DNA of 64,000 nt from positions 1 through 64,000 of IMG/VR virus record IMGVR_UViG_3300032046_005540. The stretch is one strand, 5' to 3'. Shown here one piece after another: positions 5,251 to 51,300 of the stretch. Both the position numbers and the translations under genes were made by a program. The stretch is from a virus. Within the stretch, counting starts at the first letter, position 1. Every line of letters begins with the position of its first letter. The notes under the pieces are model-generated. The model was not told where the DNA came from. It saw only the letters and a program-made list of their open reading frames with translations, and did not search any database.

Positions 5251-6240
5251 TTAAGTACCACACGGACAAATTACTCTACCTGTGAAGGTTCCTTTAGCAA
5301 CTGAATTTGCATTTACAAACAACATTCCGATTTCTTCATAACCAACATAAGCAATCAAAGCACGCTTAGGTTCATCATCCGGCATCAAAATCAAGTCAGT
5401 TCTAATTGGAAACACTCCAGTAAATCGAGGCTCGGATAAACAATAAACTGTCATATCAGGAACCAAACGAGAAACTATAATATCAATTCCCCAAATGTTA
5501 GCCATTAAACCAGTTTGCATAATTTCTCTTTGAGTCACTGGATCTACATCATCTCTCTGCCAAGACCTAATATGTGAATAAGAATCCATATTCATTAAGA
5601 ATGCATAAGCAGGAAGGTCATGAACTTGAACCACTGCAGCTAATTCATTTAGAAAATCCTTATTTAAACCTGTAGTACTAGTTGTAATTGGATTGTTAGC
5701 AACGTTAGCTAAAACTGTAGCATTTGCCAATGCTAAAAACTGAGTATCCTCTTCCAATTGAACATGAATACGAATCTTCTCCTGCATACGATCCAAAACA
5801 TTAAACCTTCTCTGTTGAATTTCAGACAACCTAATTCCCTCTGGAGCAAAAATCTCCCAAGTTTTAGGCTCAACATACTCTCCCTCAACGATAAAATCTA
5901 TAACTTCTCCACGTTTTGCAACAGTAGTTGCAAACCCCAAAATGTCTTTGTCATAACGTGCGATTTGTCCTTGAGCGAGTACATCGATCTCAAAAAATCT
6001 ACGACACATTCCTTGATAATCTAACTGCGTTCGGATTGGTATCGCCATTTGAGCTCCTAAAGCCTGCCTTCCAGCTTCTGTTTGAAGCAAATTCCAAATC
6101 TCTTCAGTTTCATCTGCTTCATTATGAAGATTGTAAGGATCAATAGTTTTGTAGTCAGCATCTGCTCTTACTGCAAAACCTCCTCTCGGAGCTTCCTTCC
6201 TAAATCCAGGCGGATACGCACTTGCATTTTTCTTTACCAT
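5251..6240 (-). CDS. Major capsid protein (HK97 fold)
   Basis: 329 aa in the canonical protease-decoration-capsid order. The pattern LGAQMAIPIRTQLDYQG...EG..VEP.TWEI...FNVLDR.Q......EED and GLMANIWGIDIIVSRLVP...G.FPIR.D...YEEIGM resembles, from memory, the capsid family of Bxz1-like large myoviruses. Very strong AGGAGGTG RBS. Confidence 0.88.
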   Translation of the reverse strand: MVKKNASAYPPGFRKEAPRGGFAVRADADYKTIDPYNLHNEADETEEIWNLLQTEAGRQALGAQMAIPIRTQLDYQGMCRRFFEIDVLAQGQIARYDKDILGFATTVAKRGEVIDFIVEGEYVEPKTWEIFAPEGIRLSEIQQRRFNVLDRMQEKIRIHVQLEEDTQFLALANATVLANVANNPITTSTTGLNKDFLNELAAVVQVHDLPAYAFLMNMDSYSHIRSWQRDDVDPVTQREIMQTGLMANIWGIDIIVSRLVPDMTVYCLSEPRFTGVFPIRTDLILMPDDEPKRALIAYVGYEEIGMLFVNANSVAKGTFTGRVICPCGT

Positions 6241-6835
6241 TAAAATTTCACCTCCTAAATAATTTAACGATTAACGATTTAACGATTATCCAAACAAAAT
6301 GAGTCTCAAGGTGTAATTATTACCTACCGAAGGTACCTGAATTACAAATCCAGCAGGCCTGTTTGCACTACCCGAAGTAGAAGCAGAAAGCTTACCACTT
6401 GCGTTAGTCCAGAGTAAATCCATAGGTGTGCTAGCTTCAACCGAAGCTTTCTCATATGCAAGATAAGAAGAATTAACAGTTCCAGCGGCTGCTTCTGCAG
6501 AATGATCAATTTGAAAAGCACAATGACCATGCAAAACAGTAGCTTTCATCGCAGCGGGCGGTTGAGCGAGTTCAGTATCATCATCCATTACAATACCATA
6601 AATCTGCTCCCCATTAACAGTACACAAAATACCATAGGTAGGATCTGTAGGATCCAATTTAAAACACTGCCCAGGAATCCAAGTAAAGCTTGGAGTCCAT
6701 CCCATGATTCCCGAGGAACCTGAAGAAAAAGTCCCAGCTATCTTTAGAGAATCTTCCCAACCAAAATATCCTGCTCTTGTTACTTTAGCCATTAAAATTT
6801 CACCTCCTAAAAACGATTAAACGATTAACGATTTA
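6237..6835 (-). promoter_or_regulatory. Duplicated translation-initiation regions (6237-6287 and 6789-6833): three AATCGTT repeats followed by TTTAGGAGGTGAAATTTTAATGG
   Basis: 23-nt identity across RBS and start codon; three heptamer copies precede each. Confidence 0.7.
6286..6792 (-). CDS. Head decoration/cement protein (putative)
   Basis: 168 aa, small-residue rich, between scaffold and MCP; DLLWTNASGKL...AGFVIQVP matches the end of beta-tulip decoration proteins. Confidence 0.65.
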   Translation of the reverse strand: MAKVTRAGYFGWEDSLKIAGTFSSGSSGIMGWTPSFTWIPGQCFKLDPTDPTYGILCTVNGEQIYGIVMDDDTELAQPPAAMKATVLHGHCAFQIDHSAEAAAGTVNSSYLAYEKASVEASTPMDLLWTNASGKLSASTSGSANRPAGFVIQVPSVGNNYTLRLILFG

Positions 6836-9800
6836 CCTTTTGTAGTAATGAACCTTAGGGGCATATTCAATTCCTTTCTTTCTCAAAGTGTTTTCAATAG
6901 TAGTAAATCTACCTGAAAAATCAGGAACACGATTAGTACTTTCTAAATCTGCAGTAGCTTTATGAAGTTGAGGAACTACACTTGCTTTCTTCCTAATTCT
7001 TTCTTTTACATCTGCAGTTAATTCTTCTTCTGTAGTTTCCTCTTCTACTATTGCAGGTCTTTCAAATCTTGACTTTTCTTGAACTGGAGGAATTACCTCT
7101 CCTTCCTCAGTTAAACCTATATCTGCTTTCTTTGAAAGTTTTGCAGCACTTTCCACATCGTCTTTCATATTATCAAGTTTTAATTGATCTGGATGCTTTC
7201 CTTCTTTTTCATCTCTAACAGATTCTGTTGCATCATATACGATTCCACTATTAACATTTTCAGCTTCTGGAATTTGATAAGCTTTTAAAGCTTTTGCATT
7301 TACTACTGGAAGAACATTTAAAGTATCCTCAACTGCTTTAAAACCCCTATCATCAAGTTCCGAATACTCTTGAGCTTTCTCAGTAACGGAATCTGTATCA
7401 AAAGGAATTACTCCAGCTGCGGCTGCTTTTCGTGCTAAATCAACAGCCCTCTTTGCAAGAGCTTCAGCAATTCGATCCTCTTCTAAAGCTTTAACTTTCT
7501 TTCTTAGATTTTCATTTTCTTTCACAATTGCAGCTACCTTTGCTTTTGTAAGTTCTCCCGCATATCCAGAATCGCCAAAAGCTTCTGTAAAATACTTCTT
7601 ATCTCCAGCAACTTTAGGAGCATCAACAGCTTCAACTCCTGGACGGGCTTTTCCAGAATCCTTTTCTCCTTCATGAGAATCATATAATCCTTTAGGAATG
7701 GTTGTAATTTCTCTTCCTTCAAAAGGAGCAGCTGTTTTTCTCTTTTTTGAAGCATATGAAGGAGTATATTTCTCAGAAACAGATTCTTCTACAGCCTCAG
7801 AGACTCCTAATCGTTCCGCAACTCTATCAATAAGAGATTCCAACGCTCCTATAACTACTTCTTGTTGTGGAGTTACTTCCGCATATCCTTTTTCATAATT
7901 ATAATCCTCTCGAAGATCATCTAATATCTGAGCAAGTTTATTTTGATCATTCCAAGCACCCCGTACAAGACGATCCCACTCTCCTGCAGATTTCTTAGCT
8001 GTTTTTCTTACTACTTTTACCCAACTTCCAAACATTTCCCTACGAACATCATCAAGACCTTTGCTTGAAACAGTTTTCAATATCAATAGTTTGTAAGAAT
8101 TTGAACAGAACTTTTTAAAATTCTCTTCTGTTAAATTATCATTACCAGCAACATCTGCAAAAGTAGATTTCATTGCAAAATTACTTCCTTCTTTTGTTAC
8201 TAACCAATAGGCATCTCCTCTTTTTTCTCTATTAATAAACAACTTTGCAACCACTCCAGTTAACAAATCTACTCTTCCTTCTGGAGTATCAAACTCGGTT
8301 CTCTTTTCTTTTCCTTTCATCTTTTCATACTCTTGGTTAAATCCCTTCCAAGTAGATAACTCTTTAGCAACCGGAGGTTCTCCATAATCTCCAGGATCTC
8401 TTGCTCCAGTAGGCGGGAACGAAGTAGCCTCTTTATCAAACATTTGACGTAACTGATCTGATGCTTTCTTAATACTATTAGCACCAGCGATAACATCTTC
8501 TATTTTTTTCGCCACATTCTCACCTCCTTCGCCTTTTTCTTTAAATTTTTCTTCTTCTTTAGGTTTCTCAAACTCTTTTTCTTTTCCAAATTCTTTTTCT
8601 TTTGGTTTCTCAACCTTCTCCAGATTTTTTATAGTATCTGTAATAATTTTCTCAGCCTCTTCTACTGCTTCCTGAGCATCTTCAATAACAGGTTTTGCCT
8701 CTCTAAGAGCTTCCTCTACTGCAAATTGTAAATGTCTTCCATATCTTTTATTACCTTTCAAAACACTTGCAAGAGGTTTTTCTGCTTCCCCTTCAAGTTT
8801 CTCTTCAACCTTTTCAAGATCTTCATGAACCTCTTTTAAATCTGTAATAGCGTTTTGTAAAACCTCCTTTACATTCTCGGGTTTCTTTTCTTCAACCTTT
8901 TCACCTGGTTTAAGCTCAGGCTTTTTTTCTCCTTCAGGTTTTTCTTCTTTTCTCTCAAAACCTTCTTCCTTTGGTTTTTCTCCCGGTTCTCTTTCTCCTC
9001 CTTTTTCTTCTCTTTTTCTCTCCATATATTCTTTTAATCCTGGAGGAAGTTCTCCTGTTAATTTCTTAAGAGTAGCTTCTACTTGAAGTTTCAACTCTTG
9101 AACTGCTTTCTTTGTATCTCTTACTACTTTAGCAGCAGAAACTTCATCTTTAAGAAAAATAACGCCAGGAGAACGTGATTCTTTCTCCTTCTCAACCATT
9201 TTATCTCCTTTCTCTGACATTCCTTTCCAACTTTTTATTTCTGTTTTTTCAATATCAATTCCTTCATCTTTTATATCTTCTGCAGTCGAAGGAAGACCAT
9301 CGTAAACTGCTGTTTTTGCTGTTACCAGCTCGGCATCAAATTCTTCCAAACGCTTCTTAACACGATCAATAAGAGATAATAACCCTCCTATACGTATTTC
9401 TTCTTCTGGAAAATTCTTTCCCAAATCTTTTATATATTCATAAGTTTCTTGAAGATCTTTTAATATTTGAGTAAGGTCACCAAAATTATTCCAAGCACCT
9501 TTTATAAGGTTTAACCATTCTCCAAAAGATTTTGAACCTAACATTCCAGCTGTTTTCATAAACATATTAGCTAACACAAACTCTTTCATATCTTCTACAG
9601 TTGGAGGAAGACTCCTGTAAACGGCTTTCTTTTTTTCAACCATACCTTTTTCTCCTTCTTCTATATTTTTTATTTCTTTTTTTTCTAATTTATATTCTCT
9701 TGGAACAACTTTATATTTAGTTTGAAGCATTTTTACCCAATCGTTAATAACACGAAGTTTCTTTTCATCGCCTCCTGCCTGTTCATACATATTATCAACT

Positions 9801-11167
9801 AATTCTTGCGGTTGCTTCCCTTGCTGTGAAACAAGAATATCAAAAGCAAGCACATCAGTTAAATCTAAACCAGTATTTTTATATTCCATAGCACCAAATT
9901 TCATAATATCTTCTTTTAAAGCAAATTTTAATCCTAATAAAATCTCAGGATTTACCAGTTGAACAAAAGTAGTACCATCCATAGGAACAAATTTAGCGCC
10001 TAATTTTTCTAACTTTGATCTATCTTCAGTTTCAACATAAACTTTTTTTATTTGTTTAGAGGTCAATGCCTCCTTAGCAATTTCTCCGTCTCTTAAATAT
10101 CCATATTTTTCTAAATCAGACCAATCTTTAAAATCTTTATTATATTCTTTTGCTTTTTTTGCAGTTGAAGAATTAAAATAATCATTTGTTACATCAACAT
10201 GCACTTCAACTTCCTCTCCTTCAGCAACTTTCACTAGAGGCAGTAATTCTTGAAATCCTTGTTTTAACATAGAGGCAATTTTTTCTAATTTATATCCTCT
10301 AATATATGCTGGATTTGCTACTACACTTAATTCAAAAAATGAGAGGCCATAATTAATTTCAAAAACTGTAGCAGTTACCATTCTACTTGTTTTTCCGGAA
10401 AGGACTTCTCTTTGATCTGCTTCTCGTTTAAGAACCCATTTTATCCATTCTGGTCTAAGCTTTCCTTCTTTCAGTAAATTTCTAATTTGGTTAGTGGGAA
10501 CTAAAACAGTAGAACCTTTAGAATAAGCAATATGTCCACAATAATCTAATTCTGTTCTAGCCCTATTGCCACAAATACTACAATCGCTAAACTCGATATT
10601 TGTCCCCATACTACAGCCAAGCGAAACATCGGAATCAACTTGGCGGGCAATCGAAGGAGATAATTTTGCGTCTACAGCCATCAACACCTCAATGCTCCCG
10701 TCTTCCTCAGGCTTTCTATTTGCTAAAACTTCCATTCTCTCTTCAGAAGTTAAATCACTCCATTCTCTATTTCCATATTTACTTAAATCAAATCTATTTA
10801 AATAAGCACCAAGTAAAGTTCCAATACTTTTAGTAACGTCATCACTTTGATGCTCCACAAAAGCTTTTTTGTTTATGAAAGAAGTATATCCATATCCTGA
10901 GCGAGAATCTAAAAATTGATCATATGGAAAGCCGTCGTAGTTACAATTTGGGCCATCCACGCACAAATTCCCAATTGCTCTAAAGCGAATGTACCGCATA
11001 TCATTATTATAAGGAGAAATTTTTTGTATTTGAGCTGCGTATTTATGAACAACTTCAGGGAAAACAGACCCCATACTGCAATTCTGACAATTGCTCTTAT
11101 TGCAATTAATACATGAACCCATTTTTCCTGGAGAAGAAAAATATTTAGTTAAAATAACTTTTTTCAT
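6833..11167 (-). CDS. Prohead (capsid maturation) protease fused to a long scaffold region
   Basis: N-terminal FVEH...SIG...SMGT..EFSDCSICGN...CGHI...FEIN.GLSFFELSVVANPA fits an HK97/herpes-assemblin-type protease with a Zn-ribbon insert; about 1100 aa of E/K-rich coiled coil follow; lies just upstream of the capsid genes. Confidence 0.8.
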   Translation of the reverse strand: MKKVILTKYFSSPGKMGSCINCNKSNCQNCSMGSVFPEVVHKYAAQIQKISPYNNDMRYIRFRAIGNLCVDGPNCNYDGFPYDQFLDSRSGYGYTSFINKKAFVEHQSDDVTKSIGTLLGAYLNRFDLSKYGNREWSDLTSEERMEVLANRKPEEDGSIEVLMAVDAKLSPSIARQVDSDVSLGCSMGTNIEFSDCSICGNRARTELDYCGHIAYSKGSTVLVPTNQIRNLLKEGKLRPEWIKWVLKREADQREVLSGKTSRMVTATVFEINYGLSFFELSVVANPAYIRGYKLEKIASMLKQGFQELLPLVKVAEGEEVEVHVDVTNDYFNSSTAKKAKEYNKDFKDWSDLEKYGYLRDGEIAKEALTSKQIKKVYVETEDRSKLEKLGAKFVPMDGTTFVQLVNPEILLGLKFALKEDIMKFGAMEYKNTGLDLTDVLAFDILVSQQGKQPQELVDNMYEQAGGDEKKLRVINDWVKMLQTKYKVVPREYKLEKKEIKNIEEGEKGMVEKKKAVYRSLPPTVEDMKEFVLANMFMKTAGMLGSKSFGEWLNLIKGAWNNFGDLTQILKDLQETYEYIKDLGKNFPEEEIRIGGLLSLIDRVKKRLEEFDAELVTAKTAVYDGLPSTAEDIKDEGIDIEKTEIKSWKGMSEKGDKMVEKEKESRSPGVIFLKDEVSAAKVVRDTKKAVQELKLQVEATLKKLTGELPPGLKEYMERKREEKGGEREPGEKPKEEGFERKEEKPEGEKKPELKPGEKVEEKKPENVKEVLQNAITDLKEVHEDLEKVEEKLEGEAEKPLASVLKGNKRYGRHLQFAVEEALREAKPVIEDAQEAVEEAEKIITDTIKNLEKVEKPKEKEFGKEKEFEKPKEEEKFKEKGEGGENVAKKIEDVIAGANSIKKASDQLRQMFDKEATSFPPTGARDPGDYGEPPVAKELSTWKGFNQEYEKMKGKEKRTEFDTPEGRVDLLTGVVAKLFINREKRGDAYWLVTKEGSNFAMKSTFADVAGNDNLTEENFKKFCSNSYKLLILKTVSSKGLDDVRREMFGSWVKVVRKTAKKSAGEWDRLVRGAWNDQNKLAQILDDLREDYNYEKGYAEVTPQQEVVIGALESLIDRVAERLGVSEAVEESVSEKYTPSYASKKRKTAAPFEGREITTIPKGLYDSHEGEKDSGKARPGVEAVDAPKVAGDKKYFTEAFGDSGYAGELTKAKVAAIVKENENLRKKVKALEEDRIAEALAKRAVDLARKAAAAGVIPFDTDSVTEKAQEYSELDDRGFKAVEDTLNVLPVVNAKALKAYQIPEAENVNSGIVYDATESVRDEKEGKHPDQLKLDNMKDDVESAAKLSKKADIGLTEEGEVIPPVQEKSRFERPAIVEEETTEEELTADVKERIRKKASVVPQLHKATADLESTNRVPDFSGRFTTIENTLRKKGIEYAPKVHYYKR

Positions 11168-12147
11168 ATCAAATTTCCTAATTTATTTTTTACTTCTTCT
11201 GTATTTTTTAAAATATCACTTTCCCAAAATCTTAAAAGAATAAAATTACTAGTTTTAGCTAATTTTTCTTTAATAAAGTCTTTTTGTTTTGTTTCTTTTT
11301 GATGTTTATTTAATTTTTGAAATTTTTTAGGATTACCATGCCAGTAATCTCCATCTACCTCTATTAAAATATTAGTATTTAGAATGTGAAAGTCATAAAG
11401 GCAATTTTTAATTCTAAACTGATGTTCAAAAGGAATGTTTAGTTCATTTAGAATTTCTTTCATTTTTAATTCAGGTCCAGTGTTTTTATAAAGGCCAAGG
11501 TGAGTTTGAAGTTGAAATATAGTACATTCACTTTGATTCTTAAAAACTCGTAAATTTTCAACCCTATTATCATTTTCTATTCCATTTATATGATAAACTA
11601 CTACAGTTGGATCTAAAAATTTACCTTCAAAGCCTTTCACTTCAATTAAAAACTCAGAATTAGGATCATGCTCTTTTAAATAATTCTCCATTACTAAACG
11701 ATGTTCCAAAATACGATCACTACCACTACATATATAAGCAAATGGATGAGTCTTTTTTTCTAAAAAAATAAGAATACGCCCATGCCCATCTTTAATTTTG
11801 CCATTTTTATAATTTGGAGCTCTTTTACCTGTTCTACCAAATATAGGATGGTTTTCACCGCACAGTTCCCCTCTTATAACAAAATTATTTTGTTTTCCAA
11901 GTTGTTTACAAGACTCAGTAGCAGCTGCTTCCTTATTATTTCTTGTTTTGCCCCATTTGTTAACTATTTTACAAATAACCCCTTGACTACAATTCAACTT
12001 TCTGGCTAATGTATAAGTACTAATTTCTTCCACTCTATATTGTCTTTCAATTTCTTTTTCTTGTAAATCTAAAAATTTACGTATACCAGTATTTGCCCTT
12101 CTTTCGTGTTTTCCTTTAAACATTTTATATATTCTCTCCCAAATCAA
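11164..12147 (-). CDS. Homing endonuclease with HNH-like and Vsr/DUF559-like domains (true start probably 12123)
   Basis: EHRLVME...VYHINGIENDNRVENL (HNH-type) followed by TGPELKMK...LIEVDGDYWHGNP...LLRFWESDI. Confidence 0.75.
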   Translation of the reverse strand: MIWERIYKMFKGKHERRANTGIRKFLDLQEKEIERQYRVEEISTYTLARKLNCSQGVICKIVNKWGKTRNNKEAAATESCKQLGKQNNFVIRGELCGENHPIFGRTGKRAPNYKNGKIKDGHGRILIFLEKKTHPFAYICSGSDRILEHRLVMENYLKEHDPNSEFLIEVKGFEGKFLDPTVVVYHINGIENDNRVENLRVFKNQSECTIFQLQTHLGLYKNTGPELKMKEILNELNIPFEHQFRIKNCLYDFHILNTNILIEVDGDYWHGNPKKFQKLNKHQKETKQKDFIKEKLAKTSNFILLRFWESDILKNTEEVKNKLGNLI

Positions 12148-13018
12148 CTTTCTCCTCCAACGGTACTTCTTTTGTCATACCTCCTTCAACAGGAACAGCA
12201 CTTTCAGTGGGCCCAATTAATTCTATATCACTTATAAAATCAGATCCAAAATCCTTTCCGTCCACAGTCATCCAAAATGCCAACTCTGTTCCAACCTTAA
12301 CTACTTTAGCTTCCTTTTTTGAAGAAGTTAAAATTTTATCTCCAACAGCTAATTTTTTAGGAGTTTTAGTAGAGGATTCTGTTCCTAAATGAACATGTAA
12401 AAAATTACCACTAATTTCCCAAATCCCTTTATCTTCATCAACAACTTCAAGTCCATCACCAGATTCAGCATACTCATCTCTTATTAATCTTTTATGTATT
12501 TTTTGAAGAGCTTCTTCTAAAGAAGACGCTGAAGTTATATAAGTTTGTAATCTTTCTCCATAATCAGAATCTTCCAAAATTCCTACATATTTCTTATTAA
12601 TTACAGCTAATTTTTTAGGAGTTTTAGTAGAAGCAATTGCAATAAGATATTCTTCAATTTGTTCTTTCAAGAATTTAGATGGTTCATCGTCTCTTTTAGA
12701 AAGAAACCTCCGTAAAAATTTTAATATTTCTTTATTTACACCATCTCTTATTCCTCCATAGAAATCTTCAGCTTGTTGTGCAGCCTCTTGACCTAAAGAA
12801 GAAGCAATATCAGCTATCAATTTTTTCTCTTCAGAAAATAAAAGAGCTCTCTTCCTCATACTTAATTTTGAAGTTGGTAAAACCGAAGGGTCGTGATCTT
12901 CGGATTTCTTTACATCTGATTCTGGAGGAAAAATAAGTTTTTGAAAATCTTTTGATAAAGGTTTTTTTGTAAAATCCCGCGTATCCCGTTCATATTCAGT
13001 AAAATCTTTTTTTGGCAT
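12125..13018 (-). CDS. Motif-punctuated small polyprotein-like ORF (KLSMRKRA plus two STKTPKKLAV)
   Basis: Motifs seen in the translation; first gene of the head operon; AGGAG RBS. Confidence 0.6.
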   Translation of the reverse strand: MPKKDFTEYERDTRDFTKKPLSKDFQKLIFPPESDVKKSEDHDPSVLPTSKLSMRKRALLFSEEKKLIADIASSLGQEAAQQAEDFYGGIRDGVNKEILKFLRRFLSKRDDEPSKFLKEQIEEYLIAIASTKTPKKLAVINKKYVGILEDSDYGERLQTYITSASSLEEALQKIHKRLIRDEYAESGDGLEVVDEDKGIWEISGNFLHVHLGTESSTKTPKKLAVGDKILTSSKKEAKVVKVGTELAFWMTVDGKDFGSDFISDIELIGPTESAVPVEGGMTKEVPLEEKVDLGENI

Positions 13019-13140: not shown

Positions 13141-13180
13141 TCTATTATCTATTATGTTACTTTTTTGTAAAAAATGTAAC
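13141..13180 (-). promoter_or_regulatory. Putative class-II (late?) promoter GTWWCA-N-GTAWCATAATAGATAATAGA, copy 1
   Basis: 40-nt intergenic element nearly identical to 23839-23878. Confidence 0.55.
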
Positions 13181-14522: not shown

Positions 14523-15329
14523 CTACTTCCAATTTATCATCTTTTTTTGATTTGGTAAACATTTTACTAAACCCCCTGAAACTAACTTTTCTTTTATTTC
14601 TTTCCTTAATTGGTAAATTCTAGCAACTTTAACATTAAAAAGACTTGCTACTTCTTTTGGCGACAATTGTTTATAATCAGAATTTTTGAACCCTACTAAA
14701 TAAAGGACAATATTAAGTTCTTTCGGTGTGAGTAGTTTTTTCAATTCTAAAATTAAATATTCCTCATTTGTTTTCTCAACTAAGACATCTTCTGGAGTAT
14801 AATAATCAATAATCCCAAATTTTCGTTCAAAATCAGGAATCTCACTTAATGCTTCAAGGGACAAAAATTCAAATTGCCTCTGTTCTAATTCATCTCTTTC
14901 TTTTCTTTCTAACTTGGTTGGATCCTGAATCAACTTCCAAAATGCTCTTTTTTTAGATTCAGGTAAAGGAATATTTGAAGGTTTCTTATTTAATGCTATT
15001 AAAATTCTTCGCTTTACATAAGGAAATGCAAAAGTTGTAAATCTTGTATGCGGTTCATAATAAGGATCAAATCCCTCCAAAGCATCACATAATCCAAAAT
15101 ATCCTTCCTGAATTAAATCTTCTAAAGATAATCCCATTCCTTCATATTTTTTAGCAATGCTTAATACAATGCGAAGAGAAGCAAATACTAATTTTTTAAA
15201 ACATTCATCTATAAGAAAAGGATCTACTGATCCTTGAATTGTAATAACACAATCTGATTCTTCCTCTTTACTTAATTTAGGAATCAAAACATTGGTTTTT
15301 AAAAATAACTCAAACGTTTTATCATTCAC
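14523..15329 (-). CDS. RNA polymerase sigma-70 family factor
   Basis: LRIVLSIAKKYEGMGLSLEDLIQEGYFGL.DA...FDP...RFTTFA.PY (region 2); LTPKE...LSPKEVASLFNVKVARIYQL (region 4). Confidence 0.9.
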   Translation of the reverse strand: MNDKTFELFLKTNVLIPKLSKEEESDCVITIQGSVDPFLIDECFKKLVFASLRIVLSIAKKYEGMGLSLEDLIQEGYFGLCDALEGFDPYYEPHTRFTTFAFPYVKRRILIALNKKPSNIPLPESKKRAFWKLIQDPTKLERKERDELEQRQFEFLSLEALSEIPDFERKFGIIDYYTPEDVLVEKTNEEYLILELKKLLTPKELNIVLYLVGFKNSDYKQLSPKEVASLFNVKVARIYQLRKEIKEKLVSGGLVKCLPNQKKMINWK

Positions 15330-18300
15330 GACTTCCTTCTTTTCTCATACTTAATCTATTTGCTATAATACCTCTACTAATTACTTCTTTAGCTTGTTCT
15401 ATTTCTTCTTTAGAAACATCTGTTTTCTTATCACTTACTATATCCCAGATTTCATCTTCAGTGTATTTACTTAACAAAGTAGAATATTCTGGATATAAAA
15501 TATCTGGAATAGTTTCCTTCGAAGGTTCATCCAATTCTAATTCTTCATCTTCAATAGTTATCTTAGAAGGAAGCCAATCTGGAAGTTTCGAATCTGGTTT
15601 TACCTTTGTTTTTGGTTTTACTTTTTGTTTTACTTTTACTTTTGGTTTTATACTTTCTTTTGTTTTTTGTCGCATTTCTTCAACAACCATTCCAAATTCT
15701 TCACTTTTTTCATTATCAAATATTTTATATGATCTCTTCCATCCTTCATAGCGCTCCATAGGTTCAATTAAGGTCACCTTTTCAGATTTTAAATCTTTTA
15801 AAACTTGATTATACATTTCTTTTCCTCTAGATATAATACCCCAAGAAGCGTAATCCATTCCATCACGTAATTCTCCTGAAGGATCAGTATTTACTAAATT
15901 TTCTGTAAAATTTGAAAATTTATCTACAAAATTTTTCCATTCTGGTTCTGGAACTACTTTTTCAATTTTATTTGAATCTTTTCCTATTTGATCTATATAA
16001 TTCCAAAATTCAATATCAGACATAACTGCTTCTTTCCGCATTCCTAACTTAGCTGTTTTAAAAGCCTCAAAAAACTGAGCCAAAGCTGGTTTTATCCATT
16101 CATTAACTAAATTATTTACTATAAACCTAGTAATTGGTTTTCCTTTACTTTTAAATCCTTCTTTATTTAAAGTCTCTGCTATTTGTTCGTGAGTATTATC
16201 TTCAATCTTTAAATCAAATATTCTTAATATCATATCTTCAAGTTCTGGATTTTTTGTATGAATATAACTTTGAAGATTTTCTCGGGCACTATTTATAGTC
16301 ATTTGAACTAAAGGATGAGATTTATCTTCTAAAGTTTCTCCTAAAGTTATATCTTCTCCAGTTGGTTCTTCTGTAGATACTTCTTTTTGTTTTTCTTCAT
16401 ATTCTTTTTTTCTAGTCCCTCTTCTTAAAAAATTATAAACAGCGGTTGTTAAAAACGTTGAAAAAGCTCCTTTTGAAGAATCATATTGAGGAATTACTCT
16501 ATTTAACATCTCAACTTTAATATCGGACAAGGTATCTTGAAAATCATCACTTCCAGGAGTTAACCCCCACTTTATAAGAGAAGAAGCTATTAAACTTTCA
16601 TTTTCTTCAATAACTTTAGCAATAGCATCCTTATCTCCTTGTTGTGCTTTTTGAATAGTTTCAGGAGCGCTTTGAGCAGTTTTTCTCATACTTAATCTAT
16701 TAGCAATATCTTTTCGACTACCTTTAATTTGTTTTTTAAGAAGTCTTGAAAAAAGAAATTCTAGCTCAACTACATCTGCGTAAGTTAATACAAAACCTCT
16801 TTCATGATGTGCCCACTTTGCTATAACGTCATGGATTTGAGTAATATCTCCTCCATAATGTTCTAACCAGTGTTGAGGACCTCCTTCATATTCTATCCAT
16901 TCAATAAAAGCATTCTTAACCTCATCCCATTGAGCAGTTTTTCTCATACTTAATCTATTTGCTACTATACCTCTACTTATTACTTCTTTAGCTTGTTCTA
17001 TTTCTTCTTCAGAAACATCTGTTTTTTTACCAGAGACGATATCCCAGATTTCGTCCGGAGAGTATTTGTTGAGAAAAGCTGCATAAGGAACTGGAATAGT
17101 TTCTTTTGAGAGATCCCCTTTTTCAGGGTGAATTTCTTCTTCTTCTTCTTCAACTTCTTCTTCTTCAACTTCTTCTATTTCAAGTTCTTCTTCTTCTTCT
17201 TTGTAAAATCCTCGATTTTTTAATCTAACTAAAGCCTCTGGAGGAGTATTTGGATTTTCCAAAAGAGCATAAAGAATTGAGTTACTTTGACTTCTTGCTA
17301 ATTCTGCCAAAGCTTTTGGAGGAGTATTTGGATTTTCTGCTAAAGCTTCACGTATAGGCATATCTCTTCTATTTCTTAATAATTCAACTAAAATCTCTGG
17401 AGGAGTATTTAGATTTCCTGCTAACTCAAAAAGAACAGTCCAATCTTTATCTTTCGCAAGTTCAACTAAAACTTCTATAGGAGTTGAAGGATTTTTTGCA
17501 ATTTGTCTCCTAACATTATAAAGGTGATTTTTTGATAAGTCAACTAAAACTTCTGAAGGAGTATTTGGATTTTCTGCTAAATTTACAGCTTTTTCAATAT
17601 TTTCCCAATATTTTTTATCTTCTTTTTCTTTTTTAATTCTTTCTTCTCTTTGTTCTTTTGTCTCTTTTTCTTCTTCTTTTTTTCTTTTTTCTTCTTTTAA
17701 TTTTTTAACTTCCTCATAAAAAGCATTCCACTTTTCTCTAGTCCATACTTTAGGGTTCTGTCCTTTCTCAATCAATTGATCCATTAACTTACCACCAACA
17801 TCTTCGCGTAGTTTTTTCTCAAATTCTTTTCTTTTTTCTTTCATTCTTTTATACTTTTGTTCTATATATTCCCCGCGATCTTGTAATTTTGCTAAAGTTT
17901 CAGGAGGAGTTGAAGGATTTTCCATAAGTGCATGAAGAACATTCCAATTTCTTTTTGATAATTCAATTAATGCTAATTCTGCTAAAGCTTTTGGAGGAGT
18001 ATTTGGATTTTCTGCTAAAGCTAGGCGAACATCTAAATTTTTATCTTCAACTAACTTAGTTAAAGCCTCTGGAGGAGTATTTGGATTTCCTGCTAAAGCT
18101 TCACGTATATTCCAGTCACTATTATTAACTAATTCTGCTAAAGCTTTTGGAGGAGTATTTGGATTTTCTGCAATTTTTAATTTTTCTGCTTGTCTTTTTT
18201 TATATTCTTCCCAACCGTTTGCAGTTTTTCTCATACTTAATCTATTTGCTACTATACCTCTACTTATTACTTCTTTAGCTTGTTCTATTTCTTCTTCAGA

Positions 18301-18879
18301 AACATCTGTTTTTTTACCAGAGACGATATCCCAGATTTCGTCCGGAGAGTATTTGTTGAGAAAAGCTGCATAAGGAACTGGAATAGTTTCTTTTGAGAGA
18401 TCCCCTTTTTCAGGGTGAATTTCTTTCTTTTTTCCAACTTCTTCAGTTACCTCAGTTTCTTCTCCCTCAAACTTTTCTTTTTCTTTTCCGGGGCCTCGCA
18501 ACGTCTCCAAAGGAACTTTCTTTATTTGATACTTTGGATTATCAGGATCTCGACAAACCTTAATTAAACTCTCTAAAAGCTCCCGACCCCGAGGTTTCAA
18601 CTCTATTTCCGTTGATATAAAAGCTAAATACTCCCCTATAATTTGTATAAAATTAGAAGTGTTATCTTCATTTGCTTCTAAAATAACATCCGACAAAGTT
18701 TCATCTCCAAAAATGCTATACAAATTTCCAGCAAGGTCTTCAACTTCATCAGGATCTAAAGAGCCAGCTTGTTGTAGATCTTTTACTATCATAAGAACAT
18801 CTGTAATCTTTTTATAATTAATAGGACCTTTTGGAAACCCTTCAATTCCTAATTTCTTCCTCATATTCAATTTCTTCAT
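15322..18879 (-). CDS. Polyprotein B (1185 aa): LSMRKxA-delimited modules including LRV repeats, a sigma-factor-like domain and a DUF4240-like domain
   Basis: Six linker copies (KLNMRKKL, RLSMRKTA x3, KLGMRKEA, RLSMRKEG) separate unrelated domains; lies directly downstream of the portal. Confidence 0.7.
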   Translation of the reverse strand: MKKLNMRKKLGIEGFPKGPINYKKITDVLMIVKDLQQAGSLDPDEVEDLAGNLYSIFGDETLSDVILEANEDNTSNFIQIIGEYLAFISTEIELKPRGRELLESLIKVCRDPDNPKYQIKKVPLETLRGPGKEKEKFEGEETEVTEEVGKKKEIHPEKGDLSKETIPVPYAAFLNKYSPDEIWDIVSGKKTDVSEEEIEQAKEVISRGIVANRLSMRKTANGWEEYKKRQAEKLKIAENPNTPPKALAELVNNSDWNIREALAGNPNTPPEALTKLVEDKNLDVRLALAENPNTPPKALAELALIELSKRNWNVLHALMENPSTPPETLAKLQDRGEYIEQKYKRMKEKRKEFEKKLREDVGGKLMDQLIEKGQNPKVWTREKWNAFYEEVKKLKEEKRKKEEEKETKEQREERIKKEKEDKKYWENIEKAVNLAENPNTPSEVLVDLSKNHLYNVRRQIAKNPSTPIEVLVELAKDKDWTVLFELAGNLNTPPEILVELLRNRRDMPIREALAENPNTPPKALAELARSQSNSILYALLENPNTPPEALVRLKNRGFYKEEEEELEIEEVEEEEVEEEEEEIHPEKGDLSKETIPVPYAAFLNKYSPDEIWDIVSGKKTDVSEEEIEQAKEVISRGIVANRLSMRKTAQWDEVKNAFIEWIEYEGGPQHWLEHYGGDITQIHDVIAKWAHHERGFVLTYADVVELEFLFSRLLKKQIKGSRKDIANRLSMRKTAQSAPETIQKAQQGDKDAIAKVIEENESLIASSLIKWGLTPGSDDFQDTLSDIKVEMLNRVIPQYDSSKGAFSTFLTTAVYNFLRRGTRKKEYEEKQKEVSTEEPTGEDITLGETLEDKSHPLVQMTINSARENLQSYIHTKNPELEDMILRIFDLKIEDNTHEQIAETLNKEGFKSKGKPITRFIVNNLVNEWIKPALAQFFEAFKTAKLGMRKEAVMSDIEFWNYIDQIGKDSNKIEKVVPEPEWKNFVDKFSNFTENLVNTDPSGELRDGMDYASWGIISRGKEMYNQVLKDLKSEKVTLIEPMERYEGWKRSYKIFDNEKSEEFGMVVEEMRQKTKESIKPKVKVKQKVKPKTKVKPDSKLPDWLPSKITIEDEELELDEPSKETIPDILYPEYSTLLSKYTEDEIWDIVSDKKTDVSKEEIEQAKEVISRGIIANRLSMRKEGSRE
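16934..18425. repeat. Exact 205-bp direct repeat (16934-17138 = 18221-18425); diverged copies at ~15339-15470 and ~55962-56092
   Basis: Encodes EIHPEKGDLSKETIPVPYAAFLNKYSPDEIWDIVSGKKTDVSEEEIEQAKEVISRGIVANRLSMRKTA; offset 1287 bp is in frame. Confidence 0.9.
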
Positions 18880-18995: not shown

Positions 18996-21900
18996 TTAAT
19001 TTTCAGTATCACGGTTCTTCAACATCTCCTTGTTAGATTTTTTTAAACGTTTTACTTCTGCCTCAAGGCCTCCTTCTAATTCTTCCTGCATTTCTTTAGA
19101 TTTTTCTCTTAATACTTCAGGGCCGCCTCCAGGTTTTCCTTCTCCTTCTGCAACTCCTTTTCCAATAGGAGCTCTCGGAGCAGACGGAGGAAGAGGTCCT
19201 CCAAGTAGTGTTGGTCCTCCACCACCTAAAGGCTTCACTTGTTGTGTTGGAGGAAGCTCTAATCCTTCTGATATTAGTTTTTCTCTAAATTCTTTATCTT
19301 TCTTTGCATCTTTAAATTGTTGATTTCTTTGTTCTTGTTTTTCGACTTCAATCTGCCTTTGTTCTAAATCTCCGTCCAACTTCAACACTCTATAATATGT
19401 AGCATCACTAATCTTTCTAACTCCTGGAAACATCTTATCAAAAGACATTAAAAATTGTCTGTATTGTGCATCTGAGGTCAAAGATAGTAAATCCCACTTC
19501 ATTTTCGGATAAATATATTTTGGTCTTACTGCTAAACCATTTTCAGCGTCTTCTTGTGCTTTTTTTCTAATAAATTCTTTAAACTCAAAATTATCTTGTA
19601 AATCTCTTAAAGTTTTTTGAGCAAATCTTTGTTCCATAAAATTCTTCATTGCTTTTGCATCACCATAAACTTTGCCTTTATAATTCTTACCTACAACTGT
19701 TTTATCTGTTTGATAAAAACCACACAATCTCGATACTACTTCAAACAAACCTTTATGCACAAAATTTTCTAACCTCAACTGAAAATGTAAATATCGTTGC
19801 CTCAAAACTTCTAAATTCATGTATGCAGTAGCATACGTTGCAGTCCCTCCAGAAAGCAGTGCTTCACTTATTCCTAAGCCTAAGAATTTAAGTTTTCGTA
19901 TTCTATCATGCTCAGGAGTAAGGTTTAAAATTTTACCGGAGGCTCCATAGAATTGAATATCCAGGCCATAATGGTAAAAGATGGTCTGGCCCTGAACTGC
20001 TATCTCACCACCACGTCTTGTTATTATAATTCCTGTAGGAACTGATACACACCAAATTTTACCTTTATAAAATTCTCTCTGTATTTTTGTGCAAGTTAAT
20101 TCATTACCATCAACTATTTTTTTATTTGGATCTTTTTGAATTTCGATTTTTCTATTTTTAATTTGATTCCAAATTAAAACATGATTTATTCCCAATTTAG
20201 TTGCTAAAGTTCTTACGTTTCCATTCACTTTTTCTAACAAAGATTCTAAATCTATCTTATCCCAATCAATTTGTTTCTTTTTTCTATAAATTTCAACTTC
20301 ACTTAAATCAATAGGAGTTTTTTCATTTTCATTAGGAATAAGAGGAAACTTTTTTTCAACTGTTTCAGAAACACTTAACATATAAAGATCATAATAAGGA
20401 GTACCATCTTCTCTATTATAACATCTCTTTCCTTCCTTTAATAAATAAGAATGAGAAGATCGAGTTCTTAAAAAAGTACCATAACCTAACTTCAAAGCAA
20501 TTTCCTGCATATCATCTATAAGTTGTTTTGAAACTGAAGCTCCTTCCCATAATATACTATTTTTTTGTTTTATACAAGTACCATCACCTTGTAACCAAGC
20601 TTTTAAAAGTAAATCAAGATGTTTCTTATCAGCATTTAACATCCAGCGAGGAACGTGTTTATTAATTTTTTCACTACAGGTCTCTTTTAAATATCTTCCT
20701 AATTTTACATTATTAATCACAAAATGATCTTCATTTTTGCGCACATTCCAAGGTAATCTTTTTGATAAATTTTCTAATATTTGAACGCCTTCTACTTTTG
20801 ATTGTGTTATATTAACACTATAAGGCTCTGTATGACTATGGTAACATAAACAACCTTCTGCTAACCACCAACCAACAAATTCAAACCAAGCTTCAGAATT
20901 TACTTGCTCTCCAGCAATCTCTAACATCTTTGGGGGTTTTTCACCTTCATAGTTATCCACACAAGCTCTAAATCTATCAGTTGCCCTTACATTTTCAGCA
21001 TGAACTATCTGCCATTCTTCATCTCTATTTACTAACATTCTATGATTTGGAGTTACTTTAATATCAACATGCTTCGTTTTAAAATGAATCATATCCCCTT
21101 CATAATCTTGGATCGTAATAATAGAAGGGTTATAATATTCAAGCGAATTATTTTCCTTATTAAAACTAGCGACCTTATGATTATAAGTTAACTCATCATA
21201 TTTAACCCAACCTTTATCTGTTAAACATTCAGTTTGATCATCATAACAGAAATTAGGATCCACCTCTCTGGCACTAAAAAGTTCCTTCACATCTTCCATT
21301 TCCTCTTGGCCGGGGATCCAGCCACTGGCTGGATCGCCAAGTTTAACCACTGTTATAGGAATCACTTGCCTAGTAGCAATAGAAAAGTTTGCCATATTTA
21401 ATCTATCTTCATAAATCAACATTTTCAAAATACGTTTGATAATTGACTTACCTAAATTTTCATATGGAGCTTTGTTGTGAGCAATAAAAAAAGTATTATT
21501 TGGATCTAAAGGAATTTCTTGACCTAATCTAACAAACTTAATAATTTCTGGAGAAAGTTGATTATATAAAAACTTAGGTTGGCCAGAGCTTACAATTCTT
21601 TTTAATGCTTCATCTGGTTGAAGTTTAATTAGAGGTTTTTGATTCAGCCAAGTAGACTCAACAGTAACATAGTCTGGGTTTAGGACCGCGAACTGATCCC
21701 ACATAAAATCTACTTCATTCCAAGCACCAAATAAAAATACATTTCCAATTCGCCAATATTCTAAACCTAAATCAAACAAAAGTTGATCTCCATGAATCCT
21801 ATCCCACATTTCTTCAAAATGAGCTTGGATTCCAGGATCGCCACAAGTTGAAAATCCATATCCAGCTAAGGGAAATTCTGTGTGAAGACGAATTGCGTTA

Positions 21901-22196
21901 CCAACTATAGGATCTGTATCATCAAAAAATCTATATAAACCATTTAGAGTTCTTAGATCGGTAGGAATAGAAAGGGTAGTAAATGTATAACGTGGATCAT
22001 TGAAAGTAGGAGCAGTCCTACTTATATCTGCGGCTTGTGTCCTTATTCTTGCTTTGAAATCTTGAGATTTATCAAAAGAAGCTCCTCGAATTGGTTTGAA
22101 TTCTGGAACTTTTATAAGACCTTGATTTTGATTTATATTTTTACTTTTACCATATCTGTCAGTATTAACAATTCGACCTCCAATAAGATAACCCAT
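18996..22196 (-). CDS. Portal protein with intein
   Basis: YRFF...DPIVGNAI.LHTEFPL...EYW.IGNVF...LNPDY...G.SII.R....L.YED.L..A..IA.R...PI.VVKLG; located between terminase and capsid genes. Confidence 0.82.
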   Translation of the reverse strand: MGYLIGGRIVNTDRYGKSKNINQNQGLIKVPEFKPIRGASFDKSQDFKARIRTQAADISRTAPTFNDPRYTFTTLSIPTDLRTLNGLYRFFDDTDPIVGNAIRLHTEFPLAGYGFSTCGDPGIQAHFEEMWDRIHGDQLLFDLGLEYWRIGNVFLFGAWNEVDFMWDQFAVLNPDYVTVESTWLNQKPLIKLQPDEALKRIVSSGQPKFLYNQLSPEIIKFVRLGQEIPLDPNNTFFIAHNKAPYENLGKSIIKRILKMLIYEDRLNMANFSIATRQVIPITVVKLGDPASGWIPGQEEMEDVKELFSAREVDPNFCYDDQTECLTDKGWVKYDELTYNHKVASFNKENNSLEYYNPSIITIQDYEGDMIHFKTKHVDIKVTPNHRMLVNRDEEWQIVHAENVRATDRFRACVDNYEGEKPPKMLEIAGEQVNSEAWFEFVGWWLAEGCLCYHSHTEPYSVNITQSKVEGVQILENLSKRLPWNVRKNEDHFVINNVKLGRYLKETCSEKINKHVPRWMLNADKKHLDLLLKAWLQGDGTCIKQKNSILWEGASVSKQLIDDMQEIALKLGYGTFLRTRSSHSYLLKEGKRCYNREDGTPYYDLYMLSVSETVEKKFPLIPNENEKTPIDLSEVEIYRKKKQIDWDKIDLESLLEKVNGNVRTLATKLGINHVLIWNQIKNRKIEIQKDPNKKIVDGNELTCTKIQREFYKGKIWCVSVPTGIIITRRGGEIAVQGQTIFYHYGLDIQFYGASGKILNLTPEHDRIRKLKFLGLGISEALLSGGTATYATAYMNLEVLRQRYLHFQLRLENFVHKGLFEVVSRLCGFYQTDKTVVGKNYKGKVYGDAKAMKNFMEQRFAQKTLRDLQDNFEFKEFIRKKAQEDAENGLAVRPKYIYPKMKWDLLSLTSDAQYRQFLMSFDKMFPGVRKISDATYYRVLKLDGDLEQRQIEVEKQEQRNQQFKDAKKDKEFREKLISEGLELPPTQQVKPLGGGGPTLLGGPLPPSAPRAPIGKGVAEGEGKPGGGPEVLREKSKEMQEELEGGLEAEVKRLKKSNKEMLKNRDTEN
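19986..21248 (-). mobile_element. Intein (421 aa, LAGLIDADG-type) in portal, ending in Gln
   Basis: DPNF|CYDDQTECLTDKGW...VTPNHRM...GWWLAEG...AWLQGDG...IWCVSVPTGIIITRRGGEIAVQGQ|TIFYH. Confidence 0.88.
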
Positions 22197-23838: not shown

Positions 23839-23878
23839 TCTATTATCTATTATGATACATTTTTCTAAAAAATGATAC
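23839..23878 (-). promoter_or_regulatory. Putative class-II (late?) promoter, copy 2
   Basis: GTATCATTTTTTAGAAAAATGTATCATAATAGATAATAGA matches 13141-13180. Confidence 0.55.
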
Positions 23879-27705: not shown

Positions 27706-27761
27706 TTTATACCTCCTTATTTATCATTATTATATTATACACAATTAAATGACAAAAGGTT

Positions 27762-48394: not shown

Positions 48395-51300
48395 CTAAAT
48401 TTGTTTTATCTCTCCCCCTTCTGCTCCATATGGAATACTAAAATCTGGAAAAATCAATTCTTTTGTAGGTTTATATTTTTTTAGTCTATTTGACTCGCCC
48501 CAAGGATCATCTTCAACTGTTCCTTCAATCTCAGCCTGAGCTGGTTCAGAAGGATAACCAGGCCCTTGATCTTCCCTCAAAAGCAATGAAGGGCTGTTAT
48601 AATTTTTTGTTGTAGGTTGACCTTCAAAACTTAATTTTGTTGTAGAACCCATAATTTCTTGAACTTTACCAAGAGGAAAATGTTCATCTTCAGGTGTATA
48701 TGCTTCTAATTCAGTTATAGTAGGATCTAAATCCAATGTAGTAATTAATTCAGGCACATAATACACAAAATTTCCAAGTTTTCCTGAATCTTTTAACCAC
48801 CCAATAAAATTTTTTCCGTAGTATCCCCTTTCAATATCATCAAACTTTTTTCCGGCAGATGGAAGATTAATTGTTTCAAACCACTGCACATGAGAATCCC
48901 AATCTACAGATTTTGCAGGAGGAGTTATATAAACCTTTCCTTCATATACAGCCCACAACCCACCTTCGTTTTCAAAAAATGCTTTCTTTCTTAAACTCAA
49001 CGAAGCTAAATCAATATGAGGATCTAAATTATGTTCTACGATTGAATCATTTTTATCATGTCTTGGAGGATTTGTTCTTCTTAATTTTTTATTATCTGTT
49101 TTATCTTGACTAACCCAATTTTCAGGAATTTCTGAAACATTATCAGTTAAAAATGAGATTTTTCTCATTGCTAACTTCGGTTCCCAAATAACATCTTCAT
49201 CATTATTCAAAATATACTTTATATTTTCTGGGGAAATAACTTCAGTAGAAATATACCAATCAGTCATTCCTTGCCATTCCATATATTTATTACCAAGATC
49301 TAATAATTGTTCTTTCGTTGGATTATCAATTCCTTGAGCTTCTGCTAATCCTTCCCCATACCACATAATTGTATCAGGAGCGTATTGATTTAAAAGTTCT
49401 GCAAAATTTTGTATTGTAGCACTACTTACAATAACATAAATTGAATCTGGAGAACCTTTTCCTCCATCGCTTCTATAAAGTTCCCTAGGTTCATACAAAG
49501 TAAACATTATAAAATGAGGATACCCAGGAATATTTTTAAAAAAAGGCCCTGGCTCTGTTACAAAAGAAGGATCAAGTCCTTTTTGTAAAATACTTTCTAA
49601 ATTCCTTTTTGAAGTTTCATGAGAAAATAATTTTTGTGAGGTTTTTCTCATACTTAATTTAGGAATCAAAACATCCTCTAATTCTTTTGTTTCTTCTTCA
49701 GTAACTTGATCATCTTTTATTATATGTTTAATCTTTCTCAAAATATCTAAATATCTATATCTTTCAATTAACTTAAAAAGAATATTCCCAGGAGTCCAAT
49801 TTTTGCTTAAACCTTTCTCAATTGGTTCTTGCCCGTCATAAAATGCTTTATTTCTTTCCTCATGTATTTGTTCATTTTCTTTTTGTAACTGCTTTAAACC
49901 TTGTTCAATATCTTCTAACTTTTTTTCTACCAACTTTTGAATATCCTCTTTATCTCCTTCATAAGAACTTACCAATTCTTTTAAAATATTATAATCAATT
50001 AAGTCTCTTTTAGTTTTACCTAACTCTTCATCCAGCTTTTTCATAATATTTTCAGCTTTATCTTGTAACAACTTAATTTTGTCACTAACATCCAAGTTTT
50101 CCGGCATTTTCTGTGGTGAAACGATCCACTTATCATTTAGTATATCATAAGCCTCTTCACCCTGTGTCAATACACTTTCTTTGGCTGACAATATATAATA
50201 TGTAAGAGGATGTGAGGTTCCTGGTAATTTTTCTTTATTTAAAGTGTTCCAAAACACTTTTAGCAGTTCTTTTTGCATTTCTTCGTTGTCATCCTTTGCT
50301 TTATTTAGATTGTTCTCTTTATAAATATCCCAATCTACTTCAACATGAATGTCAATATCAGAAGTCTTTAGGTATCTATAAGTTGCAGTTGATCCAGTAT
50401 AATAAAATCCTTTACACCAAAGTTCTGGATTATTTATTCCTACTTCTCTCAAATAATCAATAAACCTTTTTATAATAAGGGTTTTAACATCTTTTTTTAA
50501 TTTTGGAAGGTCTCCAGATAAATCCCACATTTCTGGATCTAAATGTTTTTGAGGGTAATCGAGAATAGATGCTTTTTTATTAAACAAATACTCAGTTTGA
50601 GAAAAAATAGTTTCAAACAATTTTTCAGCTTCTTCCTCCAAATTTGGATTAACCATATTCATAACTATATGAGGTTCTCCTGTTATAAAATGGTCATGTA
50701 TAAAACTAATGATATTATCAATAGATATCATAATATTTTCATCAGTAACTGCAAACTCTAATTCTCGTATATCATCTTCAACTATAATAATACTTTCTTC
50801 GACGTCTTTATCTTCTTCAATACCTTCATACTCTTTCTTCATGTGTTCTAACAGTTTTTGTAAATTCTCAATAAAATCATATTGAATTTCAACTAATAAA
50901 TCATGATCATAAACTCCAGGAGTTTTTAATTGTTGTTTATAAAGCTTGCGAATATTACCTATATTAATAAATGCTTTCTTCCTCAAACTCAACGAAGCTG
51001 TCATTGTTTGTTCAGAGGTAGGATTATCTCCCCAAAGCCAAGGATCTCTATTTATTTTTACTTTTCCAGGAAACTTAATATCAAACCCTTGATCCGGTTG
51101 TCTTTCAAGCCATTTATCTTTTCCTTGAAAATATACTTCTCCTTCAGGATGTTCTCCTTGTTGACCTTGAAGAGGTTCATTCGGAGTTGGTTCAGAAACA
51201 GTAGATGCTGGTTTTTTCATTCTTAAATTTAAACTTTCTATAGGTTCTTTTTCTCCAATACTTTCTATAGTATTATAAATTTCATCAAAATCTCCTTGAA

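Follow-up and report, generated by a model that had tools for sequence, protein, structure and literature searches.

A sigma-like module within a linker-punctuated polyprotein

The window analyzed here spans positions 1 to 64,000 of a 168,267-bp IMG/VR virus record (IMGVR_UViG_3300032046_005540; GC 30%), a phage genome in which nearly all genes lie on the minus strand. Directly after the portal gene we identified an open reading frame (ORF) of 1185 aa, here called polyprotein B, whose modules are parted by six copies of a short linker beginning at residues 4, 214, 643, 729, 945 and 1176. The recorded gene call starts 318 codons late and yields a product of only 867 aa; the N-terminus of the longer form is common to a relative (P0005). 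In order, the parts are a helical N-terminal module, a module of LRV repeats, an 80-aa module, a 208-aa sigma-like segment and a last module with weak likeness to DUF4240; another relative (P0006) carries PF14024. A unit of ~57 aa, termed U, occurs three times in polyprotein B with 63-100% DNA identity, and once more in a second large linker-bearing ORF of the window, polyprotein A. Neither the complete ORF nor its separate modules gave a Pfam or PHROG match to an embedded peptidase or to a head-targeting domain of the MuF/gp7 type.

The sigma-like segment is the subject of this analysis. A sequence-only reading had placed a segment of ~210 aa, with sigma-70 region 2 and a region-4 helix-turn-helix (HTH), between RLSMRKTA and KLGMRKEA. 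This segment is confirmed as residues 736-943, between the fourth and fifth linkers of the minus-strand ORF, and both sigma regions were recovered by sequence profile and in the predicted fold (below). Read on the plus strand, 16050-16677 gives a translation full of stops, and the feature belongs to the minus strand.

Sequence evidence for a divergent sigma factor

Among the NCBIfam models, SigK (E 2e-6), SigY (E 2.2e-6) and TIGR02937 (E 6e-6) matched the module, the last of these across both of its domains. The SigK and SigY models gave 27 bits against cut-offs of 194-252. With scores below cut-off yet E-values of 2e-6 to 6e-6, the module reads as a divergent relative of the sigma factors rather than as a member of a curated family. 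To avoid circularity, we built a trimmed profile from phage sequences only (six sequences, four of them close relatives and two at 30% identity). All 16 PDB matches of this profile at E <= 1 were sigma factors, the best being SigF (2.6e-4), SigH (3e-4, extending into region 4) and SigA (3.9e-4). In an hhalign comparison of the close family with a set of bacterial-type sigma factors, the probability was 99.8% over 162 columns, the target set having been chosen by similarity. Consistent with these matches, the invariant columns of the phage family fall at sigma-typical positions: an A-Q-x-G-D-x-x-A start, the Asp of region 2.1, the P-x-x-D...G-x-F of regions 2.2/2.3 and the Ile of the HTH. Similarity between the module and the free-standing sigma gene next door (14523-15329) was not detectable, and the possibility that the module is a recent duplicate of that gene is ruled out by an hhalign probability of 0.1%.

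Predicted structure of the module

A single-sequence AF2 model was uninformative (pLDDT 56.8). With a 24-sequence alignment, which included true sigma factors, the pLDDT rose to 84.6 and the model showed two helical domains with a disordered linker between them. Using VIA-align, we superposed the first domain (model residues 1-91) on sigma2 of M. tuberculosis SigK (Z 10.5, rmsd 2.2 Å over 85 residues) and on that of SigC (Z 10.2, 1.9 Å over 82), and the second (model residues 114-208) on sigma4 of F. nucleatum SigH (Z 8.9), on SigR region 4 (Z 7.2, 2.0 Å over 64) and on sigmaE region 4 bound to -35 element DNA (Z 7.1). Foldseek, a check that the sequence-only reading had called for, returned sigma factors for almost all top matches in PDB and phage sigma factors for almost all of those in BFVD. 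The E-values of these matches were modest, because the two domains of the module are freely oriented. On the predicted fold, residues 736-943 form a real and complete, if divergent, module of the sigma-70 family, with sigma2 and sigma4 and of a size like that of ECF factors. We regard its identity as a sigma relative as very probable.

Conservation of the module and its boundaries

An exhaustive HMMER search of 1.8 billion representatives detected 27 relatives. Eight of them, at E <= 1e-30, are likewise linker-punctuated proteins with this module inside; phage proteins of 300-360 aa make up a middle tier, and ordinary sigma factors of ~190 aa, aligned end to end, form the tail. A metagenome scan with the single protein gave nine loci, three of them close. 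A tblastn search of a phage collection with the module gave no match, and scanning IMG/VR with the module alignment yielded no additional locus. The 11 close relatives examined (the eight proteins and the three loci) all keep the module with a linker at each boundary. It is the constant part of the gene, 55-94% identical and conserved over its whole length, while the remaining modules differ: LRV repeats, a DUF4240-like module and a zinc finger are gained or lost. One polyprotein (L021:247-2082) ends in a zinc-finger module, C-x-x-C-x-G-x-G, with no terminal linker, indicating that a C-terminal linker is not obligatory.

In one close relative (L005) the slot after the portal holds the sigma module alone, as a 240-aa gene with a linker at both ends, followed by an ordinary sigma gene. 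Relatives at 30% identity, including one from a 168-kb contig, have in this slot a single sigma-like protein of 299-364 aa with one L-S-L-[RK]-K near its C-terminus and a conserved tail of ~18 aa. Comparison across the relatives suggests that a sigma-like protein is the ancestral, constant occupant of this slot and that the other modules are later additions. Two metagenomic relatives (P0013 and P0015) have two tandem sigma2-like domains ahead of the sigma4-like domain. Modules also appear to move between the two polyproteins, since a polyprotein A-like protein (P0035, L018) holds module M1, which is N-terminal in polyprotein B. In the same 107-kb relative the counterpart of polyprotein A is split into ORFs of 1479 aa and 1873 aa.

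Distribution of the linker motif

We asked how often the strict linker, L-[SGN]-M-[RK]-K, would occur by chance given the amino-acid composition of the ~51,800 predicted residues of the genome. The 168-kb genome has 17 copies against 0.21 expected, and all 17 are confined to five ORFs: polyprotein B (six), polyprotein A (seven), a 297-aa protein of the head block, a 117-aa ORF just ahead of the large terminase and a 518-aa ORF flanked by the genes for a tail protein and a virion structural protein. All five thus lie among structural or packaging genes. The basic core of the motif followed by Ala, [RK]-K-x-A, was enriched relative to per-protein shuffling in polyprotein A (11 against 1.4 expected), the 297-aa protein (4 against 0.3) and the major capsid protein (2 against 0.09), where both matches fall within the first 17 residues. 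A sequence like [RK]-K-x-A also ends the segment of a 1444-aa head-block ORF that is conserved with its L015 ortholog, and we take the end of this segment as a candidate junction between protease and scaffold. This distribution of [RK]-K-x-A fits that of a head-protease site. A conserved protease site at the capsid N-terminus is a weaker proposal, the match there lacking conservation in L015.

As the motif lies no more than nine residues from both termini of polyprotein B, a docking role is possible as well. Internal translation starts at the Met of the motif are ruled out, since many copies, and the 30%-identity relatives, have Leu, Phe or Ile in its place. The linker was absent from a 25-kb locus around the portal gene of phage G, the nearest cultured relative by portal, and the gene that follows the portal there (gp15) shows no similarity. 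Just past the window (L017), two large ORFs without a PHROG family, at 65791-69165 and 70219-73056, have 8 against 1.4 and 4 against 0.6 expected matches to [RK]-K-x-A.

Gene neighborhood

The coding sequence of the module belongs to the head morphogenesis block, where it directly follows the portal and lies upstream of the protease-scaffold and capsid genes. The order along the minus strand is portal with intein, polyprotein B, ordinary sigma factor, homing endonuclease, deformylase-SEC-C, 297-aa motif protein, second homing endonuclease, 1444-aa ORF, 168-aa protein and major capsid protein (Table 1). As far as the related contigs reach, the succession of portal, polyprotein B slot, sigma, deformylase, 297-aa protein, protease-scaffold, decoration and capsid genes is largely conserved. 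The best cultured match of the portal is that of Bacillus phage G. By its position and a short match to a prohead protease near its N-terminus, the 1444-aa ORF may be a fusion of protease and scaffold and is a candidate for the processing enzyme; the 168-aa protein is presumed from its position to be the decoration protein. The counterpart of the 297-aa protein in the 30%-identity relatives has 254 aa and two copies of the motif. Polyprotein A lies close downstream of the large terminase, with a homing-endonuclease gene and a 230-aa ORF in between.

Table 1. Positions of polyprotein B, its parts and associated features; coordinates are those of the window unless marked otherwise
Feature	Position	Strand	Remarks
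Polyprotein B	15322..18879	-	1185 aa; modules parted by six copies of L-[SGN]-M-[RK]-K
Sigma-like module (P0003)	16051..16674	-	residues 736-943 (208 aa), between fourth and fifth linkers
Sigma2-like domain	16390..16674	-	residues ~736-830; Pfam Sigma70_r2 E 0.014, HTH_16 E 4e-4
Sigma4-like domain	16051..16335	-	residues ~849-943; Pfam Recombinase E 0.023; repeats of P0019
Linker upstream of module	16681..16695	-	L-S-M-R-K then T-A-Q; boundary copy kept in all close relatives
Linker downstream of module	16033..16047	-	L-G-M-R-K then E-A; boundary copy kept in all close relatives, degenerate in three
LRV-repeat module	17125..18225	-	two repeat blocks flanking a charged helical stretch; Pfam LRV E 1.6e-31, LRV_2 E 1.9e-15; repeat family D3
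U unit, ~57 aa	15355..15525, 16954-17124, 18241-18408	-	each copy directly before a linker; repeat family D2
Last module, weakly DUF4240-like	15526..16032	-	Pfam DUF4240 E 0.012, below cut-off
Ordinary sigma factor, free-standing	14523..15329	-	Sigma70_r2 E 8e-11; TIGR02937 65.6 bits, above cut-off; phrog_351 E 1e-24
Portal with intein	18996..22196	-	directly upstream of polyprotein B; phrog_16240 E 6e-57; Intein_splicing and LAGLIDADG matches
297-aa head-block protein	12125..13018	-	one linker at residues 52-56; motif kept in orthologs of L003, L015, L020 and L021
1444-aa ORF	6833..11167	-	phrog_18299 head maturation protease E 1e-10, residues 160-219; ortholog in L015
Major capsid protein	5251..6240	-	phrog_2522 E 9e-54
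Polyprotein A	48395..58186	-	3263 aa; 7 strict and 16 relaxed linker copies; no Pfam or PHROG family
Class-2 promoter-like element, 40 nt	13141..13180 and 23839-23878	- (13141..13180)	identical 16-mer core; only two copies in genome
Third sigma-70-family gene	genome 101474-102082 (L010:1480-2088)	-	beyond the window; TIGR02937 E 1.4e-8, phrog_1740 E 3.9e-8

Other sigma genes and promoter-like elements

The free-standing gene adjoining polyprotein B, which the sequence-only reading had also called a sigma factor, is indeed an ordinary one, and its start overlaps the polyprotein B stop codon by 8 nt. The same reading had assigned the two sigmas to two promoter classes; this is too simple, as a third sigma gene lies at 101474-102082 of the genome, and the sigma set of the phage comprises two free-standing genes and the embedded module.

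Only one class of promoter-like element recurs, with 13 copies genome-wide. This class 1 has the layout C-x-C-C-T, 14 bases, T-T-T-G, then TGTATAAT and ATATT, and most of its copies lie 35-40 nt ahead of a start codon that has a strong ribosome-binding site. Sites in the window include 31033, 31479, 32168, 33955, 34182, 34473 and 40235, with a variant copy at 27734; 6 of the 13 copies are found in a region of small genes at 31-34.5 kb. The -35 of class 1 is non-canonical, the TG departs by one base from extended -10 spacing and the TATAAT is perfect. A canonical TTGACA-17-TATAAT class did not rise above the antisense background. Each of the two class-2 elements precedes one of the two head operons, and polyprotein B belongs to the operon from 23878. 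Neither promoter element is present in the 116 nt before polyprotein B, which is probably co-transcribed with the portal. An RNA polymerase of the phage's own was not recognizable in the parts examined.

A proposed virion-delivered sigma factor

The presence of a sigma cassette in a polyprotein encoded next to the portal suggests that the phage ships its own sigma factor in the virion. Polyprotein B would be expressed along with the head genes, and its linkers, in the form L-[SN]-[ML]-[RK]-K-x-[AS], would be cut by the phage head protease, perhaps serving also as docking tags, such that about five proteins are freed inside the prohead. The released module of ~210 aa would then be carried in the capsid and ejected with the DNA. 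In the host it would bind core RNA polymerase and either direct the first phage transcription or pre-empt the host sigma, before any phage protein is made. The circumstantial evidence for head-packaged cargo is the position after the portal in the head block, the restriction of linker ORFs to structural and packaging neighborhoods and the enrichment of [RK]-K-x-A. Two free-standing sigmas together with a sole recurrent promoter class that is non-canonical, and no TTGACA-17-TATAAT class, may indicate a need for a further, third sigma, and we count this in favor of delivery in the virion. For the whole chain, from synthesis with the head proteins through linker cleavage, carriage in the capsid and delivery with the DNA to action on host core polymerase, we estimate a probability of about 0.4. 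The interpretation offered by the sequence-only reading, taken as a whole, is partly supported. It is more doubtful that an entire clade of large phages (~168 kb where long records exist) packages a dedicated sigma as protease-released cargo and injects it with the DNA, reprogramming host core RNA polymerase at time zero without phage gene expression, and that L-[SN]-[ML]-[RK]-K is a general signal for cargo loading and processing that allows new modules to be plugged in by recombination.

Several observations weigh against delivery of an active sigma factor in the virion. Every sequence score of the module is below the curated cut-off of its family (15.6 against 24 bits for Sigma70_r2, 26 against 42.9 for TIGR02937), and a profile of the nine closest full-length proteins alone barely reaches PDB (E 0.09). 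The good AF2 model, as said above, drew on an alignment that was not free of true sigma factors. The phage family has Ser or Gly at the region 2.2 Gln and retains the acidic member of this Q-E pair; in region 2.3 it lacks both Trp residues and retains one aromatic residue. On E. coli sigma-70 numbering, we take the Gln position to be the contact with the beta' clamp helices and the missing pair to be the region 2.3 Trp positions. The sigma4 HTH has an insertion between its two helices that resembles a recombinase-type HTH. The capsid match, F-R-K-E-A, is not kept in the 30%-identity relative L015. The perfect TATAAT of class 1 might allow the host primary sigma to read these promoters unaided. 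Lastly, the ordinary sigma gene is translationally coupled within the same operon, and the block is therefore not purely structural.

An unlikely alternative is that polyprotein B is a cytoplasmic pro-sigma, cut by a phage protease (the trypsin-like enzyme at 46081-46959 or the S49 enzyme at 45192-46112) or by a host protease, whose sigma acts later in the same infection with nothing packaged. SigK is the best NCBIfam match and the SpoIVFB:pro-sigmaK complex is among the structural matches; the window encodes two proteases other than the scaffold-associated candidate, and the basic residues of the linker would suit a trypsin-like enzyme. The co-transcription and translational coupling of an ordinary sigma gene would fit as well. 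The layout M-x-K-L-N-... at protein N-termini, moreover, recalls what we take to be a similar N-terminal extension on L27 and on the head proteins of phage 80alpha, which is removed by Prp. Cleavage of L27 and of the 80alpha head proteins by host Prp is documented (PMC5744158). Prp sites, however, have F-F before A, in sharp contrast to the K-K or K-T that precedes A at the presumed cut, and our search for a phage-encoded Prp protease found no homolog. A cytoplasmic precursor also sits poorly with the limitation of linker ORFs to structural and packaging neighborhoods, with a post-portal slot conserved down to 30% identity and with a phage that already has two ordinary sigma genes without pro-sequences.

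It is improbable that the module is packaged and ejected but no longer works as an initiation factor, acting instead as a decoy that occupies host core polymerase (host shut-off) or as an internal head protein that binds DNA. The two sigma domains, with the linker between them, retain their usual order and size, the invariant residues are at family-typical positions, and conservation is strong over the whole module, at 55-94% identity in close relatives. Such a sigma-derived cargo would nonetheless account for the atypical residues of regions 2.2/2.3 (Gln to Ser or Gly, no Trp pair), the recombinase-like insertion in the sigma4 HTH and the failure of the module to reach any curated cut-off, and the tandem sigma2-like domains of P0013 and P0015 are untypical of initiation factors.

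Least probable is a single uncut protein of 1185 aa, acting or ejected intact as is thought for polyvalent proteins, with the motif serving as a tag that docks or sorts it to the scaffold, the portal or the inside of the capsid. In favor of this reading, cutting so near the termini would free few residues only, the motif is multivalent (6 copies in polyprotein B, 16 in polyprotein A) and it is similar to the C-terminal peptides that load cargo into encapsulins, the shells of which have the same fold as the capsid. Polyvalent proteins, too, are well established as a class (PMC5512222). Against this reading, module shuffling follows the motif boundaries exactly, the sigma module is also found as a gene of its own with the motif on either side, a sigma tethered in a protein of this size is hard to fit on core polymerase, and no MuF/gp7 head-targeting domain or embedded peptidase was found in the ORF.

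Comparison with known systems

The module shares the sigma2 and sigma4 fold with the sigma-70-family factors of phages (those of Bacillus phages; T4 gp55 as a minimal form), and phage sigma factors are its BFVD neighbors. It differs from them as a linker-bounded cassette of a long ORF, directly after the portal, with scores below curated cut-offs. The internal proteins of T4 and the inner-body proteins of phiKZ carry at the N-terminus a short conserved tag with a protease site behind it, and many cargo proteins are cut at one simple motif. The linker recalls this combination of tag and site on cargo; it is, however, basic, in contrast to the x-E of T4 and phiKZ, and many of the sites are internal to one ORF. 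In pro-sigmaE and pro-sigmaK of Bacillus sporulation a sigma precursor is likewise freed by a specific protease, and SigK models are the best NCBIfam match of the module. There, a short N-terminal pro-peptide is removed, whereas the module is flanked on both sides by whole unrelated modules, and the SigK match is far below cut-offs.

Delivery with the DNA is established for the virion RNA polymerases of N4 and of phages of the phiKZ/AR9 type, and for T4 Alt (reviewed in PMC7824862). If the module is packaged, the logic would be the same, early transcription without new protein synthesis; those systems deliver a polymerase or a modifying enzyme, whereas here nothing more than a specificity subunit would be delivered, to act with the host core enzyme. 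Polyvalent proteins combine unrelated modules and have been proposed to travel with the DNA and to be freed by proteolysis (Iyer et al. 2017, PMC5512222). Polyprotein B is likewise a large protein of unrelated modules whose architecture varies between relatives, but its modules are parted by a defined short linker, and the embedded peptidase or MuF-type domain was not found. The word 'sigma' occurs zero times in that survey. A search of open-access text with a few phrases found no report of a virion-delivered bacterial-type sigma factor, the phrases matching reovirus sigma proteins only.

Phages are known to take over transcription by sigma factors made after infection or by injected polymerases and modifying enzymes. 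An injected specificity subunit, if real, would be a cheaper takeover not described before and a third way of virion-borne takeover, and it would account for the start of the program in a phage that lacks canonical host-type promoters. The linker would give a testable rule for capsid-loaded proteins and a natural means of plugging in cargo. Should packaging prove wrong, the production of a sigma as a cassette of a polyprotein would still be an unusual mode of sigma regulation.

Other features of the window

Inteins with LAGLIDADG domains are present in both the portal (18996-22196) and the large terminase (60242-63478), and the portal ORFs of relatives reach 2349 aa with several inteins. The S49-type head-maturation protease (45192-46112) and the trypsin-like peptidase (46081-46959) adjoin each other far from the head block; the pair (45192-46959) lies beside an exonuclease gene and polyprotein A. 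A peptide deformylase with a C-terminal SEC-C motif (13184-13696) stands beside the sigma pair in all related loci that reach that far. Three tandem AATCGTT-like repeats (6241-6285, 6793-6832) precede the ribosome-binding sites of the presumed decoration gene and of the capsid gene.

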